A DNA stretch of 64,000 bases from positions 165,130-229,129 of the IMG/VR virus record IMGVR_UViG_2710264778_000001. The stretch is one strand, 5' to 3'. The position numbers were made by a program, and so were the translations under genes. Each line of letters begins with the position of its first letter. The stretch's first letter is position 1. The stretch is from a virus. Its lineage: Duplodnaviria; Caudoviricetes. Below the pieces are notes generated by a model. It was not told where the DNA came from and did no database searches. It saw only the letters and a program-made list of their open reading frames with translations. Positions 7,750 to 29,079 of the stretch are shown here, in pieces.

Positions 7750-8187
7750 TTATTCCCAATCTAAACTAGCAGTTTTCTCTTCAAACTCACCATCTTTAAT
7801 GATAAATCTAAAATGTTCTCCGTCTTCACCACTAAATTGTAAAAATCCATCCTCACAATATGGAGCTATTATTTTAAAGAATGTGTCATCATCACCATAT
7901 TTTTCACCTAAGAAATCTGTTATTATGTAGAAATTATCTTCTTCTTTAATTTCATATCTTAAATCTGACCAAACATCTTCTATTGACATTAATTCATCTT
8001 CTTCATAATCATCGTCCCATGAATGGTCTTCTTTATCTGTCCCTAAGTCAATTTCATTAATATCAAATCCATCTACCCAACGTAAAGTATTTGATTTAAA
8101 ATAATCTGATAGTGTTTGTAGTATTATCTTCATATTTTCCTTTTTAATTTTTATAGTTCCTTCTTCATGACTTATACAATATCCCAT
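7750..8187 (-). CDS. hypothetical acidic protein
   Basis: ORF coupled to the upstream gene. Confidence 0.6.
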   Translation of the reverse strand: MGYCISHEEGTIKIKKENMKIILQTLSDYFKSNTLRWVDGFDINEIDLGTDKEDHSWDDDYEEDELMSIEDVWSDLRYEIKEEDNFYIITDFLGEKYGDDDTFFKIIAPYCEDGFLQFSGEDGEHFRFIIKDGEFEEKTASLDWE

Positions 8188-8189
8188 AA

Positions 8190-8483
8190 CTAATTTTCCT
8201 CCTTGTTTAAAAATAATTTCTTTTCTTCATTTAAATTTAATTTATACTTTTTAACTATATAATCTAATAATTCATCATTGTCAATTTTACTACCATTACA
8301 AAATGGACACATATGTTTAGGTACACTACCACCATTCCCATTTATAATATCAAACCAATCTTTACCTTCTGTATTTTCTATGCATTCGTCACACAAGCTT
8401 CTTCCACATTCCTCACATTCTGATACATACTCTTCATACCTTGCATCTCCACAACAATCACAACTATAATAATCTACTGACAT
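8190..8483 (-). CDS. Cys-rich putative zinc-finger protein
   Basis: Four CxxC pairs. Confidence 0.6.
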   Translation of the reverse strand: MSVDYYSCDCCGDARYEEYVSECEECGRSLCDECIENTEGKDWFDIINGNGGSVPKHMCPFCNGSKIDNDELLDYIVKKYKLNLNEEKKLFLNKEEN

Positions 8484-8595
8484 TTTACATCTCTCCTCTT
8501 TCTTTTATTATTTAATTTATTTGTAATGTCATAAAATATTCTTTTGATTGACTTTTTTGTTTTAAGATAAGGGAATAAATCCCCTATCTATTAGC

Positions 8596-11391
8596 TTAAT
8601 TTAAATCAACTTCATATTGATTGCTTGAACCATACATCGAATTTTCACATTTCTTATCTTTTTCAAACTTTCCACATATTAACTTATCAATATATTTTGT
8701 TTGTTCTAAATTTTTTATATCATTGTATTCATATCCAGTCCAAACAAAAATACTACAATCAGGAATTTCTTCTTTTACTGATTTTAATAAATCTAATAAT
8801 TCTTCTCTATTATATGGTGCGAATGGTTCACCACCTAAAACTGATAAAGCCTTTCTTTCTTTACATAATTCTATTATTTTTTGTTTATTTAATTTAAATT
8901 CTGTATCATGTTTCCATAAAAATTGATTATGACAATCTTCACAATGGTGTGGGCATCCTGTAAACCATACTGATACTCTTAATCCTTCACCATTTAGTAT
9001 TTCAAAATCGTGAATTCCTCGTTCAACTTCTCGTCCATAATGAACTTCTCTATCTTGATTTTCTTGTTCTTTTCCTTCATTTACTCTTGTATCACCATCA
9101 ATAACATAATAAGAAAGATATCCACAAACTCTGTCAGTAACTATTATTTTTTTACTACCACAATGAGAACAATGAGGATTTGTTTTATCATAATCAAGTA
9201 TTTCTTTGCCACAATTCTCACAAATAGCTGAATCGAAGTTTACTCCTTCATATAATCCCATTTTCATAGCATGTCTTGTAACTTGACTTATAGCTTTTAT
9301 ATTGTGATTTATAGGGTACTCGCTATAAAAAATGTGACCACCATTGCTTAAATCAAACATAGGTTTTTCTATTTTCATTTTTTCAAATGGATCAATTTTA
9401 GCAGTAACATTTACATGAAAACTATTCATAAAATATTTTTTGTCAGTTATTCCTTTAACTTCACCAAAATGTTCAAATTCTTTATCTCTACAAGTTTCAG
9501 CATACTTTTCGGCAGGTGTTCCGTAAATTGCAAATAATAATCCATGTTTTTTGATGGCTTCATCTTTCCACTTGTTTAAATGTTCTAAAACTTTGATAGA
9601 AAAACTGTTATCTTCATGTTCTTCTTTTCCAGTCATTAATAAATTCACTTCATTTAACCCTATATATCCATATGACCAAGTAAAAGTTCTTATTGCTTTT
9701 TCAATAGTTTCATCAGGTTTAAGTTTCATATGACATCCACCCTCACAAAAGAACAATGGATTTGAACTAGCTAAAACATTTTTCATTCTATTAAATTGCC
9801 ATAAATGTCCTTCAGTTGCTAAGTCAAAATACTTTTTAAGTTCTTTGAAATAAGCTTTTTCATCTCTTGTTTCTCTAAACATTAATGCTGGTCTTACTGT
9901 ATTTAAAGTTATTGCACCACAATTTGCCCTTCCATTAAATACTGGGTTGCCATTTTCATCAAACCATACTGATAAATAAGCTCTACACACTTCATTCTAT
10001 TATTTCTAATAGCGTGGACTATACCTTTATATACCTTTTAACAAGAGTTTATTTGTAGTTACTCTAAAGATATATACCTCACATTAAGCTAATTTAAATA
10101 TAATTAACTTACACATATTGGTCTACAAAACCTTCTGTGAAGTCTCTACACCGTTGCTTTATTACTAAAGCCTTTAGGCTCGGTATTACCTTATCATAAG
10201 ACTTAGGCTTCACCGATTTGAGTGAGGTTTTGTATGGGCAGTAGATTATATTCTACCCATAGGTGCTAATGCATATCCATACTTTTTCCATATCTCTCCA
10301 CAATAGCCTTCATCAAGAGAAAGAAAGTCAGGATAGTTTCTTTTACTTCTACATTTAATTGCTAAGTTGTATAAATCTTCATTAATTCCACCTTCTCCAT
10401 GTATTTCATCTCTATAAAAGAATACTATTTTAGGAAATATTGCAGTTTGATGGAGTTTACCACAACCTTTTAATCTAGTTTCCAATATTATTCTAGTAAC
10501 AAATTTAGCCCAAAATGAAGTTCTATTTCCAAATGCTATTGTTTCAAATGGAACTTGCATATTAGAATTCGATATAGAATTTAATCTAGTTTCTATTCCA
10601 TTCCATCTTTTTCTAAAGGCACGTTCTACAAATTTCATTGCTAAATCTTTAATAGTTTCTTCATCTACTTTATCTCCTAGTTGATTTTTATAATATGTAA
10701 TTGATTTTTCATAAGATTTCTCAAGAACATCTTCTAATACATGGTCAATTTCATTTATTGTAAAGCCACCATATTCTTGAGAGCTAGCTTCAAGCAAAAC
10801 ATCTGATAAAACACCTAAGTAAGCTTCTATGCTATCAGCATCATCATATAATAAACCATTTATTACTGGATTATTGTCTATAACATTTTTCATATCAAAT
10901 AAGCAACAATTTATACTTCCAAAATAACGATCTGCTAAATCATGAAATTTCATTTTATTATCTATATGTGCATCTGCTAATTTTCTAGGTAATACATGGG
11001 TTAACATTTCATTTTGAATAAATGAGTCTAATATATGTCCTTTTTTGGTAGATATTAAATATGAATTTTTATTTGCATTTTCTCTATTAGGTTTTGTTAA
11101 TATGTTGTAAAATTCACTTCTTAATTCTTTATTTCTTTTGTATTCTTGTATTGCTCTATATCCTTCATAAGATAATGCAATATCTTTATTTTTATTTTCT
11201 ATAAGTAATAACACTACATTCTTTTCTATATTTACTACAGATGGTTCAATTTCGTTATTGATTAATTTCTCTTGGATTCTATTTGCTACTTTTTCAGCAA
11301 TCTTGTCTGTTCCTCCAGCTTTTTGAATAGCTTCAACTATTCTTTGTTTATTGAAGTCTTGTTTTTCTCCTGTCCTTTTTGTAATTTGCAT
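8596..11391 (-). CDS. nrdD: anaerobic ribonucleotide reductase NrdD fused to activase NrdG; exons 11391-10255 and 9987-8596 (about 842 aa spliced)
   Basis: N-terminal ATP cone, INCC, NYPD, PMG|CR rejoined across the intron, YGTPAE, GGH, Zn CxxC pairs and the RVCGY glycyl-radical loop. These run in frame into NGEGLRVSVWFTGCPHHCEDCHN (NrdG CxxxCxxC), LGGEP and GSSNQ. Confidence 0.93.
9988..10254 (-). ncRNA. group I intron (267 nt, no ORF) in nrdD
   Basis: 5' exon ends in U. P1 AUGGGU/GCCCAU has the U-G wobble; P10 UCUAC pairs with GUAGA in the 3' exon. P-like AAAUCGGUGAAGC, Q-like AAUACCGAGCC, R GUAGAGACUU and S AAGGUAUAGUCC are present, and the terminal base is G. Removal restores PMGCRAYL. 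Confidence 0.93.
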
Positions 11392-11418
11392 TTGACCACT
11401 CTCTTTCTATTTTATAAT

Positions 11419-12615
11419 TTATTTATCATATTTTGTATTAGGTTTAACCAACACAAAACTAATAATCATTGCTATTGTATAAAGTATTAATAAAATATAT
11501 AAAACATCATTGTAATTATGTGTTTTTGATATTATATAAGCACTTAATTGATTTCCTGTTATTCCTGCTATAGCCCATGCTGATAACTCTAAACCATGAA
11601 TTGTACTTATATTTTGCATACCATATCTATCTGATAGTAAGGTTGGCAGATTACTAAACCCACCGCCATATCCAGCATTAACTACACAAAGTAGAATTAT
11701 AACTAAAATTATTATTGAATTACTTATTGCATTTGTTAGTATAGTTGCTAATATGAAACCTATTGATAAGCCAAATATTAATTTATATATAGTATTTCTA
11801 TCTTTTAGCTTGTCACCTATAGATGAGAAAACTAGTCTACCTCCAGCATTAAATATAGCTGATAATGAACTTGCAAATGCTATTGCTGTAAATCCCATAT
11901 ATGTATAAATGTCTTTTTCTTGTGCAATTAAAGCTAGTCCACATGTAATGTTTATATAAAACATGATCCATATTCCTATGAAAGTTTTATTCTTAATAAT
12001 TGATAGTTTGTTAATTGGAATATATGTATCATTATCTTGATATTTTTTAGGCTTCTTTAATAATAAATGTCCTATAAACATTGATATAAAGTACATTCCA
12101 CCTAATATATAAAACATATTATATATGGTTGTTATTTGTTGTAAGTATTGCATTATTGGACTTGCTATAACTTTTGCTAAACCAAATCCCATTACTGCTA
12201 TTCCTGTGGCTAATCCTTTATTTTCTTTAAACCAAATCATTAGTGTTTTTACTGGTGTTAAATATCCAATACCTAATCCAATTCCCATTATCACGCCATA
12301 TGAAATGTAAATGCCTATTAACGATTTAAAATATATTGATAAACCTGTTCCAAACATTCCTAGTGTAAATAATATAGTTGCTAGTAGTGAAGATTTATGA
12401 ATATCTTTTTCTACAAATTTACCACCAAAACTAGCTGACATACCTAAGAAAAATATTGCTATACTAAATGCCCATTCTACTGAATTAACACTTTGTCCTA
12501 TGTAATTTGCTATATTACCTTTAAGTAAAGACCAACAATAAACTGTACCGATTGAACAATGAATTAGAAGGGCAGGTATTGCCCCATTAATCCATTTATT
12601 TTGATTTAATTTCAA
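11419..12615 (-). CDS. MFS transporter, oxalate:formate antiporter (OFA) family
   Basis: About 12 hydrophobic segments; G.VY.WS, GIGLGIGY.TP.K....WF...KGLATG.A..GFG, FNAGGR...S..GD and YGGGF motifs. Confidence 0.85.
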   Translation of the reverse strand: MKLNQNKWINGAIPALLIHCSIGTVYCWSLLKGNIANYIGQSVNSVEWAFSIAIFFLGMSASFGGKFVEKDIHKSSLLATILFTLGMFGTGLSIYFKSLIGIYISYGVIMGIGLGIGYLTPVKTLMIWFKENKGLATGIAVMGFGLAKVIASPIMQYLQQITTIYNMFYILGGMYFISMFIGHLLLKKPKKYQDNDTYIPINKLSIIKNKTFIGIWIMFYINITCGLALIAQEKDIYTYMGFTAIAFASSLSAIFNAGGRLVFSSIGDKLKDRNTIYKLIFGLSIGFILATILTNAISNSIIILVIILLCVVNAGYGGGFSNLPTLLSDRYGMQNISTIHGLELSAWAIAGITGNQLSAYIISKTHNYNDVLYILLILYTIAMIISFVLVKPNTKYDK

Positions 12616-12907
12616 CTTATCACATTCTTTCTACTTAGTTATATTTTGTTTTATGTATTTAATCTTTCATTGTTTGTTCAAAAAACCATATAGCTGTTAC
12701 GATTGACCCACAAATTGCAGTACTTCTTAAATTTGTAATGCTTTGACTTACAAATGAATCATATATTAAATACAACCAATAAGCACCACATATTAAATTA
12801 AAAACTTTCCATAGTCTTTGCATTTTAAATTGCTCCTTTATAAACTTAATTATATTTTATTTACATTTATTATATTACCATCATAAGAATAATTTGTAAA
12901 TAGGTAA

Positions 12908-13153
12908 TCATAATTTATTCTTTATTTCTTCTCTACTTCCACTCTTCCCACATTGAGTACAATGCATTTCACTACTTCTCATTTCATATGTACTATCATA
13001 CTCTATTGTGTATTCTCCCTTTTCATCTTTATGGTCACAATCATCTTGTAAATCTTTTATCTTTTCAGTTATCTCTTTATTTACCTCATCTAATAAAGTT
13101 TTTCTTTTTAAATATAATCCCTTTAATTCCATTTCTATATCATTATTTTTCAT
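12908..13153 (-). CDS. hypothetical protein (C-x-H and CxxC)
   Basis: ORF with RBS. Confidence 0.55.
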   Translation of the reverse strand: MKNNDIEMELKGLYLKRKTLLDEVNKEITEKIKDLQDDCDHKDEKGEYTIEYDSTYEMRSSEMHCTQCGKSGSREEIKNKL

Positions 13154-13174
13154 AATATTATTTCTCCTTTTTAA

Positions 13175-13426
13175 TTAATTATATTTTCCACTACCATTAC
13201 AACGAGGACAAGTCACCCAATCATCAGATGACTTATGATAAGGATCGCCACCATCATTACAAGGTTGATAAATTTCTCCTTTTCCATAACATGAGGGACA
13301 CGCATTTGATATTTTACATAAATCTTCTTTAGACTTGTTTAAGTTATTAATAATAATTTGTCTTTCTTTTATTTCTTTTTGTAATGTTTCAATTGATTCA
13401 TCCATTTTCTTAATTGTTGTTATCAT
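13175..13426 (-). CDS. DnaJ-type zinc-finger protein
   Basis: Two CxxCxGxG repeats (CPSCYGKG, CPRCNGSG). Confidence 0.6.
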   Translation of the reverse strand: MITTIKKMDESIETLQKEIKERQIIINNLNKSKEDLCKISNACPSCYGKGEIYQPCNDGGDPYHKSSDDWVTCPRCNGSGKYN

Positions 13427-13644
13427 AATTATCTCTCCTTTTATATATCATATATTTTATTTACTTTCCCTTAAAATTAACATTTTAACAGGTTATCTGA
13501 CCTCTGTAAGCTAGTAAACAAGCCATTCTTAAATTTAATTTTTATAAAAATTGACTAATTTTAAGAATTTGCTCTATAATCGCTTAGAAATCAATTTTTC
13601 TCAAAAATTCTGTTTTTAACAATTCTATATAATTATAGACGACT

Positions 13645-19179: not shown

Positions 19180-19959
19180 TTAATCAGTTATTTCTACTTT
19201 CCAATTATACATAGCATTGTAAAGTTTAATTGGAATTTTATCCTTATATTTATCAGCAACTTCTTTGATATATTGCTCTTTAAAAGGTTTATATCCTTTA
19301 TAAAAAGCATCTTCTGGAGTTTCAAAGCTACCTAATTTTTTATTATATGAGGAGTTAATATCTAAATTATATACACTACAACACGCTCGATAGTTATTAT
19401 TTAATTTATTATAGCTTACCCCTAATGGGAAATTACCTCTAGCTTTGTCACATTTAACAAATAAATTATTTATTCTTCTTGAAACAAATACACAATTATC
19501 AGGAGAATATATTTTATTTCCCTTAACCAATATGTCTTTATCGAGAGACATTCGCTCTCCTTCAATTTCATAATAATTATCATCAAACCATTTTGCAAAG
19601 TTTTGAAAATTATGCCATTCTTCACAAACAATACAATTTTTATATGTAGGATATATTTTTAATTTATTTGGATTATAACATCTATCTAACATACTTGTCC
19701 AATACTTATAATGAATTGTTCTTGCTTTAATCCCTTTGAAAAAAGTATAATCTCCTTCACCTAAATATCCTATGTTATGTACTCCTCTGTCATATGGATA
19801 TTTTGTATCTCCATTAATAAAATGATGATATGTAGTTTCAGTTTTATATCCACTTTCAAATTGTACAGTTATATTATTTGCATCTTTATATTGAATGATT
19901 TCCATTTTATTATTAAACTTATTAAAATTTATTTCACCTATTCTGTTAATTTCTTTCAT
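19180..19959 (-). CDS. free-standing HNH-type homing endonuclease (copy 2) between the topoisomerase genes
   Basis: Same MLDRC, FQNFAKWF and LDKDIL motifs as 2792-3550. Confidence 0.75.
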   Translation of the reverse strand: MKEINRIGEINFNKFNNKMEIIQYKDANNITVQFESGYKTETTYHHFINGDTKYPYDRGVHNIGYLGEGDYTFFKGIKARTIHYKYWTSMLDRCYNPNKLKIYPTYKNCIVCEEWHNFQNFAKWFDDNYYEIEGERMSLDKDILVKGNKIYSPDNCVFVSRRINNLFVKCDKARGNFPLGVSYNKLNNNYRACCSVYNLDINSSYNKKLGSFETPEDAFYKGYKPFKEQYIKEVADKYKDKIPIKLYNAMYNWKVEITD

Positions 19960-28302: not shown

Positions 28303-29079
28303 TTAATCATTTATGTCTATTTCATATGTATATAATGCATTATATAATTCAATAGGTATTCTATCTTTATAATCATCTGCTACTTCTTTAATTACTTTCT
28401 CTCTATATGTCTTGTACACTTCAAATGCTTCGTTTTCATCATAGAATACTTTACCTAATTTAACTGGTTTTCCATTCTTATTATTTGTACTAACTGTATA
28501 TGTATTACTACCCTTTTTATTTTCATGAACTCCTAATGGGAAATCTCCTCGATTCAATTTTCTATTTATTAATAATAAATTAATTCTATGTGGTACAAAA
28601 ATACAATTGCTTGGACTATATTCTTTATTGCCTTTATGTAAAATATCTTTATCTAAATCCATTCTCTCTGTACCTATATCATAATAATTATCTTCCCACC
28701 AGTCTCTAAAAGTTTGATAATTATGCCACTCTTCGCAAACAGTACAACCTTTATATGAATTTTGTCTAGCATTCCATTTAGGGGTATAGCACCTTCCTAT
28801 CATATTGTGCCAAGTTTTATATTCTTTAAATAATTTATTGTTTTCACTAATTTTCCATCTTCCGTCACCAGTACAGGCAACGCCACAAATTGTTTTATCA
28901 TATGGATTTTTAATTACACCTCGATTAAAATTGCTATATGTAGTATCTTTTGTGTATTTATGTTCATCTTCAAACTGTATCTTTATATGCTCTGTATTCT
29001 TAAATTCAATTATTGTCATTGTTGTCCCATTTTTATTAACATTCTGTTCTCCAATATGTTCACTATAATCTCTCTTCAT
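28303..29079 (-). CDS. free-standing HNH-type homing endonuclease (copy 4)
   Basis: WHNMIGRC, LDKDILHKGN and YSPSNCIFVP motifs. Confidence 0.75.
   Translation of the reverse strand: MKRDYSEHIGEQNVNKNGTTMTIIEFKNTEHIKIQFEDEHKYTKDTTYSNFNRGVIKNPYDKTICGVACTGDGRWKISENNKLFKEYKTWHNMIGRCYTPKWNARQNSYKGCTVCEEWHNYQTFRDWWEDNYYDIGTERMDLDKDILHKGNKEYSPSNCIFVPHRINLLLINRKLNRGDFPLGVHENKKGSNTYTVSTNNKNGKPVKLGKVFYDENEAFEVYKTYREKVIKEVADDYKDRIPIELYNALYTYEIDIND

Follow-up and report, generated by a model that had tools for sequence, protein, structure and literature searches.

The 64,000-nt stretch of phage DNA analysed here (the window) carries, between positions 8596 and 12615, a gene for a transporter of the major facilitator superfamily (MFS) directly in front of nrdD, the gene for an anaerobic (class III) ribonucleotide reductase (RNR). 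We read this arrangement as an optional, host-derived transporter of small monocarboxylates that is placed, with operon-like spacing, ahead of an nrdD-nrdG fusion of formate type with an intron, an interpretation that we hold with as much confidence as doubt. The window makes up the final 64 kb of a virus record of 229,129 bp with a G+C content of 25.8% and a CheckV completeness of 100%, and almost all of its genes lie on the minus strand. The host of the phage is an anaerobic bacterium. In the direction of the genes, the region is composed as follows:

11419 to 12615, minus strand: MFS transporter gene of the OFA / bacterial SLC16-like family, 398 aa, TTG start, TAA stop at 11421 to 11419
11392 to 11418, minus strand: spacer of 27 nt with the nrdD ribosome-binding site of GAAAGAGAG type; the nrdD ATG lies at 11391
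10255 to 11391, minus strand: nrdD exon 1, coding for the ATP-cone and the N-terminal half of the class III RNR barrel, with the N-C-C motif and ending in ...PMG
9988 to 10254, minus strand: predicted group I intron without open reading frame (ORF), 267 nt, one codon before the thiyl-radical Cys, family RF00028
9025 to 9987, minus strand: NrdD part of nrdD exon 2, with the catalytic Cys, YxxPxE, the Cys4 zinc site, RVCGY and the natural C-terminal tail
8596 to 9015, minus strand: NrdG activase domain with the CX3CX2C radical-SAM cluster motif, stop codon at 8596 to 8598

The original prediction had described an intact 398-aa MFS gene that ends 27 nt before nrdD on the same strand, and this was confirmed by the reading frame, the coordinates, the match to Pfam MFS_1 (90.4 bits, cut-off 33.4) and the AlphaFold model, a 12-helix MFS fold with a pLDDT of 89.7 and a pTM of 0.88. 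The N-terminus agrees with the MKKxxNKW of the homologues, and the TTG start is also found in L001, a related viral contig of 196 kb. The gene is intact and under purifying selection, with a dN/dS of 0.19 against the L001 copy on both sides of a 1-nt deletion in the latter. Its composition is fully phage-like, as seen in the G+C content of third codon positions (0.14) and in a correlation of 0.92 between its relative synonymous codon usage and that of the phage core genes. It is the only MFS gene of the phage.

The gene is host-derived. The protein falls within a clade of about 12 metagenomic variants of 75-91% identity, L001 included, and this clade adjoins sequences of Candidatus Epulonipiscium, Clostridiaceae, Bacillaceae and Lachnospiraceae at 63-69% identity. 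Members of the family are present in many genomes of Clostridia, Bacillaceae and Treponema. In GenBank phages no member was found: a tblastn search of 50,697 phage records gave no relative above 26% identity over most of the transporter length, the region had no megablast match in this set, and in the literature searched we found no paper on a full 12-helix carboxylate secondary carrier in a phage of anaerobes.

The assignment to a subfamily is less clear than that to the MFS. The best NCBIfam match is the model of SfMCT, the L-lactate:H+ symporter of Syntrophobacter fumaroxidans (NF049980, 248.5 bits, below the cut-off of 320), and the models of the OFA subfamily (TIGR00890, 155.4 bits, cut-off 374.85) and of the oxalate:formate antiporter OxlT (TIGR04259, 99.7 bits, cut-off 335) also remain below their thresholds. 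Homologues of 66-85% identity carry the label 'OFA family MFS transporter' at NCBI and JGI, so that the earlier designation as OFA-type holds at the level of the family name and fails at the TIGR00890 cut-off. With Foldseek, OxlT and SfMCT were obtained as top structural matches (TM-score 0.84-0.87, identity 23-24%), followed by human MCT1, MCT2 and MCT8. The transporter is equally distant from OxlT and SfMCT, and its family is without a characterised member above 25% identity.

To compare the binding pockets, published binding residues were transferred via phmmer alignments, and invariance was read from an alignment of 24 sequences comprising phage and cellular homologues. The following positions of the phage protein were mapped:

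R260: R280 in SfMCT, R272 in OxlT
N256: N276 in SfMCT, N268 in OxlT
Y118: Y119 in SfMCT, Y124 in OxlT
Y316: Y331 in SfMCT, W324 in OxlT
F320: F335 in SfMCT, Y328 in OxlT
F144: L145 in SfMCT, Y150 in OxlT
V25: L28 in SfMCT, Q34 in OxlT
Y26: Y29 in SfMCT, Y35 in OxlT
W347: a Cys in SfMCT, K355 in OxlT
I54: Q63 in OxlT
L344: W352 in OxlT

All of these residues, I54 included, are invariant in the 24-sequence alignment. In the SfMCT ligand site (L28, Y119, L145, N276, R280, Y331, F335; PMC6573034) five residues are identical and two conservatively replaced in the phage protein. The pocket of OxlT contains two basic residues, Arg272 (TM8) and Lys355 (TM11), with Gln34 and Gln63 supporting Lys355 (PMC10070484). 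Here R260 is present, and W347 stands for Lys355, V25 for Gln34 and I54 for Gln63. An identity as oxalate:formate antiporter was rejected, since an equivalent of Lys355 and thereby the second positive charge is missing. With Trp at the Lys355 place, the conserved carboxylate-binding Arg is the one positive charge left in the pocket, as would suit a monocarboxylate. Possible substrates are formate, acetate, lactate and pyruvate.

The invariance of these residues also bears on a quite different explanation, namely that the protein has lost transport, being in decay or having taken on another role, such as that of a membrane decoy or of superinfection exclusion. The L001 copy is frameshifted, a second relative (L219) is without the gene, and motif A between TM2 and TM3 is atypical (GxFVEKDIHK). 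The cellular homologues, however, share this atypical motif A, and the pocket conserved across phage and cellular members, the low dN/dS and the confident 12-helix model speak against this explanation. We consider a loss of transport hardly credible.

The original prediction had gone further and proposed that the phage imports formate to fuel its NrdD, taking the OFA name as a pointer. This pointer is lost, because OxlT moves formate outward, not inward (PMC10070484), and its specific residues Lys355, Gln34, Gln63 and Trp352 are not kept. The nearest functional model, SfMCT, does not help either: only L-lactate was transported, and unsubstituted monocarboxylates competed only if they were C3-C4, not C1-C2 (PMC6573034). 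If the pocket acts like that of SfMCT, formate is thus disfavoured. On the other hand, the aromatic cage around one Arg is as in OxlT, and the bulky Trp for the SfMCT Cys together with Phe for Leu would make the cavity smaller, so that an acid smaller than lactate may be favoured.

The reductase itself is better suited to the proposal. According to the criteria published for the formate-using NrdD subtype (PMC4493059, PMC4390871), the sequence corresponds to NrdD1, the subtype of T4, E. coli and L. lactis. The counterpart of T4 N78-C79 is an N-C-C motif in exon 1. Across the splice, the finger loop has the sequence PMG|CR, in which the Met precedes the Cys by two residues. The enzymes of E. 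coli and T4 show the same spacing, and a Cys-Met thiosulfuranyl radical has been proposed for them. A second Cys of the SCCR type is absent from this loop. Exon 2 starts at the thiyl-radical Cys (T4 C290 equivalent) and contains YGTPAE, the glycyl-radical loop RVCGY and the Cys4 zinc site CENCG...CSHCG. The nearest solved structures are T4 NrdD for exon 2 (E 2e-44) and chain 9d3x for exon 1. By homology, the enzyme should use formate as reductant, and the earlier claim of a formate-using class III RNR is upheld to this extent. In the phage genome there is no class I or II RNR and no gene resembling pyruvate formate-lyase (PFL); the phage has NrdD as its sole RNR and encodes no source of formate.

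The reading frame of nrdD is divided into two ORFs that abut at positions 384/385 of the model NF006732. The insert between them is, by its predicted helices, a group I intron, and its splicing would restore the frame. P1 is formed by AUGGGU at the 5' exon end and GCCCAU fifteen bases into the insert, which places a U.G pair at the splice site; in P10, UCUAC is matched to GUAGA at the start of exon 2, and the terminal base is G. The full-length match to RF00028 has 44.7 bits (E 2e-10), slightly below the gathering score of 50. It was detected in a search of 321 nt; an Rfam search of 5.5 kb with default filters missed it. Exon 2 (9987 to 8596) then joins NrdD in frame to a complete NrdG, with a linker of about 6 residues after the natural NrdD C-terminus. 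Both the intron and the fusion, on which the original prediction was silent, recur in L219. There the intron occupies the same site (L219:6726-7000), its interior diverged and its helices kept by compensatory pair changes, and the fusion (L219:6974-8395) is 78% identical. The nrdD of L001 is intron-less, and nrdD and nrdG are separate genes in L001, in the viral contig L162, in the cellular contig L030 and in the best GenBank phage hits.

Isolate assemblies of a single bacterial species, coming from three studies, contain the same DNA. In an independent isolate assembly (run X4), positions 8000 to 13500 and thereby the whole span are covered; its eight longest pieces show zero differences and bridge the intron as well as the nrdD-nrdG fusion junction. 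Minority variants with 1-nt indels were present in this run at 9314, 9326, 9586, 9600 and 12043. In three RNA-seq runs of the host species 0 reads fell on the stretch, these being runs without reads of the phage.

How firmly the transporter belongs to the reductase can be seen from the two close relatives. L001 shares with the window the gene order gyrB, gyrA, MCP, a gene of 192 aa, MFS and nrdD. Its MFS protein is 82% identical to that of the window; its NrdD is only 25-30% identical, unsplit and accompanied by a separate nrdG, and resembles the model NF005497, whereas the window NrdD resembles NF006732. Over the compared 6.6-kb region, nucleotide homology between the two (80%) is confined to 11317-12622 of the window and L001:7994-9291, a block which opens 7 nt ahead of the MFS start and closes 74 nt inside nrdD. 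The MFS-nrdD junction thus dates back to a common ancestor, while most of nrdD was replaced in what looks like a cassette swap with a breakpoint inside the ATP-cone. The 1-nt deletion in the L001 MFS gene (L001:8480-8500) leaves ORFs of 160 and 230 aa; since both parts are still under purifying selection, it is either a recent inactivation or an assembly error.

L219 (194 kb) presents the opposite case. It keeps the flanks of the window, an orthologous nrdD of 76-78% identity, the intron and the fusion, and contains no MFS gene anywhere in its 194-kb contig, which has a CheckV completeness of 78%. Within the MFS ORF of the window, homology to L219 sets in 15 nt from the 3' end. As L219 runs the same NrdD without the transporter, the latter is dispensable for this reductase and not a fixed, indispensable part of its system. 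What lies between the 192-aa gene and nrdD is different in each of the three relatives, and the MFS block is bordered by recombination breakpoints. Two further ORFs were noticed in these genomes. One of 259 aa lies between gyrB and gyrA (window 19180-19959, minus strand) and is not found in L001; another of 254 aa follows just after nrdD-nrdG in L219 (L219:8543-9307) and is 57% identical to window 28306-29079. Both are possibly free-standing mobile genes of homing-endonuclease-like type.

Beyond these relatives, the co-occurrence of the two genes was followed through viral and cellular loci. L162 (IMG/VR, 150,486 bp) carries an MFS gene of 57% identity, then nrdD and then nrdG, with other upstream neighbours; its MFS protein sits in a different clade of the tree from that of the window. 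The L162 nrdD (L162:9448-11655) has three in-frame TAG codons and no other stops, and TAG being the only stop in frame, it is probably read there as a sense codon. The NrdDs that adjoin the MFS gene in L001 and L162 share the formate-type motifs. In the cellular contig L030 the order is reversed (nrdD, nrdG, MFS, zupT, pyrG), and the MFS protein belongs to the clade of L162.

These cases are exceptions. The MFS family was found in 62 IMG/VR contigs, mostly far from nrdD. About ten viral records hold both genes at distances of 9-260 kb: 9.4 kb in L165 and L171, 21 kb in L164, 25 kb in L167, 68 kb in L166, 134 kb in L169, and a linear distance of 160 kb or more in L175, L203, L205, L208 and L211. 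With circular genomes, L205, L208 and L211 would still have at least 35 kb between the two genes. No nrdD was found within 6 kb of the MFS gene in five other viral loci. In cells, nrdD lies within 8 kb of the MFS gene in none of 80 GTDB loci and in one of 80 metagenome loci, L030. The synteny check proposed with the original prediction thus gave an adjacency that is not generally conserved, and the link between MFS gene and nrdD is facultative. The records L172-L217 (IMG/VR, 10-400 kb, mostly above 230 kb, 30% G+C) are near-identical huge-phage contigs with a family member of 40-44% identity, flanked by conserved genes of unknown function; in the two of them that were searched, L175 and L203, nrdD is more than 100 kb from the MFS gene.

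A regulatory or neighbourhood pointer to formate was also sought. No riboswitch was found upstream of the MFS gene in 31 cellular loci. ZTP riboswitches are present in 15 of 50 genomes, none of them placed upstream of the MFS gene, a check that is incomplete as several contigs were not matched to loci; in addition, a ZTP-like word, CCGCCTGGGC, was found only inside coding sequence. NrdR-like boxes are not enriched (3 of 212 upstream regions, 26 of 1060 controls), and in the window no NrdR box lies upstream. The formate-tetrahydrofolate ligase gene fhs occurs in all 50 cellular genomes with the transporter family, but within 8 kb of the MFS gene in none of 217 loci. Instead, the cellular neighbours are heterogeneous, lineage-specific and not metabolic, such as a cNMP-binding protein, VanZ, ABC transporters, CheA/CheR and GGDEF-EAL proteins; purL is a neighbour in one Lachnospiraceae clade. 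Homologues from rumen Clostridia (L026, L027, L028, L029, L031, L032, L034, L035, L108, L110, L114) share a sequence some 60 nt ahead of the MFS start, the inverted repeat AATTGCAAATCACG ... CGTGATTGCAATT, which overlaps the promoter hexamers and is probably the operator of an unknown repressor.

Taken together, these data allow the formate proposal to be weighed, in which the transporter imports formate for a formate-dependent NrdD and forms with reductase and activase a self-sufficient module for deoxynucleotide (dNTP) synthesis. Its support lies in an intact and selected gene, in the NrdD of T4/E. coli type (MGCR finger loop, N-C-C, YxxPxE) as the only RNR of a phage without PFL, and in the operon-like spacing. 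Two MFS clades have gained or kept the adjacency, as has a cellular nrdD-nrdG-MFS array, with the same NrdD motifs beside the MFS genes of L001 and L162, and every near-complete MFS-bearing viral record examined contains nrdD. The ligase in all 50 cellular genomes with the family is in line with it, and so is the estimated demand: 458,258 nucleotides per genome at one formate each amount to tens of millions of formate for a burst of 50-100. Against it stand the outward transport by OxlT and the loss of its specific residues, the SfMCT-like pocket and the failure of acids below C3 to compete in SfMCT, the transporter-free L219, the frameshift in L001, the separation of the two genes in about ten viral records, the lack of a link in 159 of 160 cellular loci, and cellular surroundings without riboswitch or fhs (within the limit given for ZTP) and without enrichment of NrdR boxes. 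Of the claim that formate import fuels NrdD, the gene, its place, the reductase type and the recurrence stand; the pocket and the patchy synteny do not bear it out. We regard the formate proposal as possible, though on balance we tend to disbelieve it. Its wider form, a formate:H+ importer repeatedly recruited by large phages of anaerobes next to a formate-dependent NrdD, appears doubtful to us.

For the question whether transporter and reductase are expressed together, the sequence around the MFS start was inspected. Two further features lie upstream of it:

12659 to 12823, minus strand: hydrophobic small ORF of 54 aa immediately before the MFS gene, shorter than the usual ORF threshold and with a strong ribosome-binding site, AAAGGAG
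12900 to 12872: promoter-like site near the 54-aa ORF

The 54-aa ORF may be a member of the MFS-nrdD unit. No terminator-like hairpin was found across 8000 to 13500, promoter-like matches in this range are not above shuffled expectation, and there is no convincing promoter of the MFS gene itself. The gene is co-oriented within a long array of replication and nucleotide genes. From the spacing, co-transcription of MFS gene and nrdD appears probable.

This context is what separates our interpretation from that of a moron expressed in lysogeny, which would serve the carrier of a phage persisting in cultured isolates by carboxylate scavenging or acid export, would take no part in the DNA synthesis of the phage and would owe its place beside nrdD to an accident in a recombination-prone slot. 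The recovery of the phage DNA from isolate assemblies of one species in three studies is compatible with such cargo, as are the different slot contents in the three relatives, the breakpoints at both sides of the MFS block and the cellular homologues, which are mostly stand-alone genes. However, the missing terminator before nrdD, the lack of a convincing own promoter and the co-orientation with replication and nucleotide genes speak against it, and we judge this explanation to be unlikely.

We therefore return to the optional monocarboxylate transporter. In the proposed mechanism it is carried as optional cargo in the variable slot immediately upstream of nrdD, probably shares a transcript with the intron-containing nrdD-nrdG fusion, and would reach the host membrane at the time of phage deoxynucleotide synthesis. 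Most likely proton-coupled, it would alter the small-carboxylate exchange of the infected or phage-carrying cell, presumably to the benefit of the phage. Two observations count against this interpretation. Firstly, the proton site of SfMCT (H250, R256 and D257 in TM7; PMC6573034) is not kept, with Q232, T238 and Y239 at these places in the phage protein, which leaves the coupling mode uncertain. Secondly, immediate adjacency is naively expected in about 1% of genomes of ~200 genes, or in about 0.2 cases in the lineages examined; two independent phage cases and one cellular case were seen. An adjacency above naive chance, in two MFS clades and three arrangements, suggests some functional tie between transporter and reductase.

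The consequences depend on the substrate. Formate is a key interspecies electron carrier. If the protein were a formate importer, some viruses would provide for both the enzyme and the reductant of dNTP synthesis, and phage replication in anoxic habitats would be tied to extracellular formate. Reductant import and the fused reductase-activase would then form a compact, virus-owned pathway to DNA precursors, and the phage would be the first known virus to import the reductant for its own ribonucleotide reductase. A carrier of lactate, acetate or pyruvate would mean that the virus alters how infected cells exchange fermentation acids.

Several known systems are related to the one described here. 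SfMCT, a bacterial SLC16 homologue (PDB 6G9X/6HCL), is similar in fold (TM-score 0.84-0.87), is the best NCBIfam hit and shares Y119, N276, R280, Y331 and F335 with the phage protein, in which L28 and L145 are conservatively replaced. It differs by an identity of only 23%, a score below the 320-bit cut-off, the proton site and the TM11 Cys, which is Trp in the phage protein. OxlT of Oxalobacter formigenes (PDB 8HPK/8HPJ) is likewise a top structural match (TM-score 0.85-0.86, 24% identity) with equivalents of Arg272, Asn268, Tyr35 and Tyr124 and a pocket rich in aromatics. In contrast to OxlT, the phage protein has Trp for Lys355, Val for Gln34, Ile for Gln63 and Leu for Trp352 and is missing the second charge for a dicarboxylate.

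On the side of the reductase, the closest parallel is T4, whose nrdD (sunY) carries a group I intron and whose NrdD/NrdG system shares the catalytic motifs of the phage NrdD. Unlike in T4, the intron of our phage has 267 nt without an ORF, NrdD and NrdG are one polypeptide, and an MFS gene stands in front. Viral nutrient transporters are known as auxiliary metabolic genes from cyanophages (pstS) and prasinoviruses (phosphate and ammonium transporters), while complete secondary transporters are rare in phages. As in those viruses, a host-derived uptake protein is carried that presumably sustains metabolism during infection; here it is a full 12-helix carboxylate secondary carrier in a phage of anaerobes.

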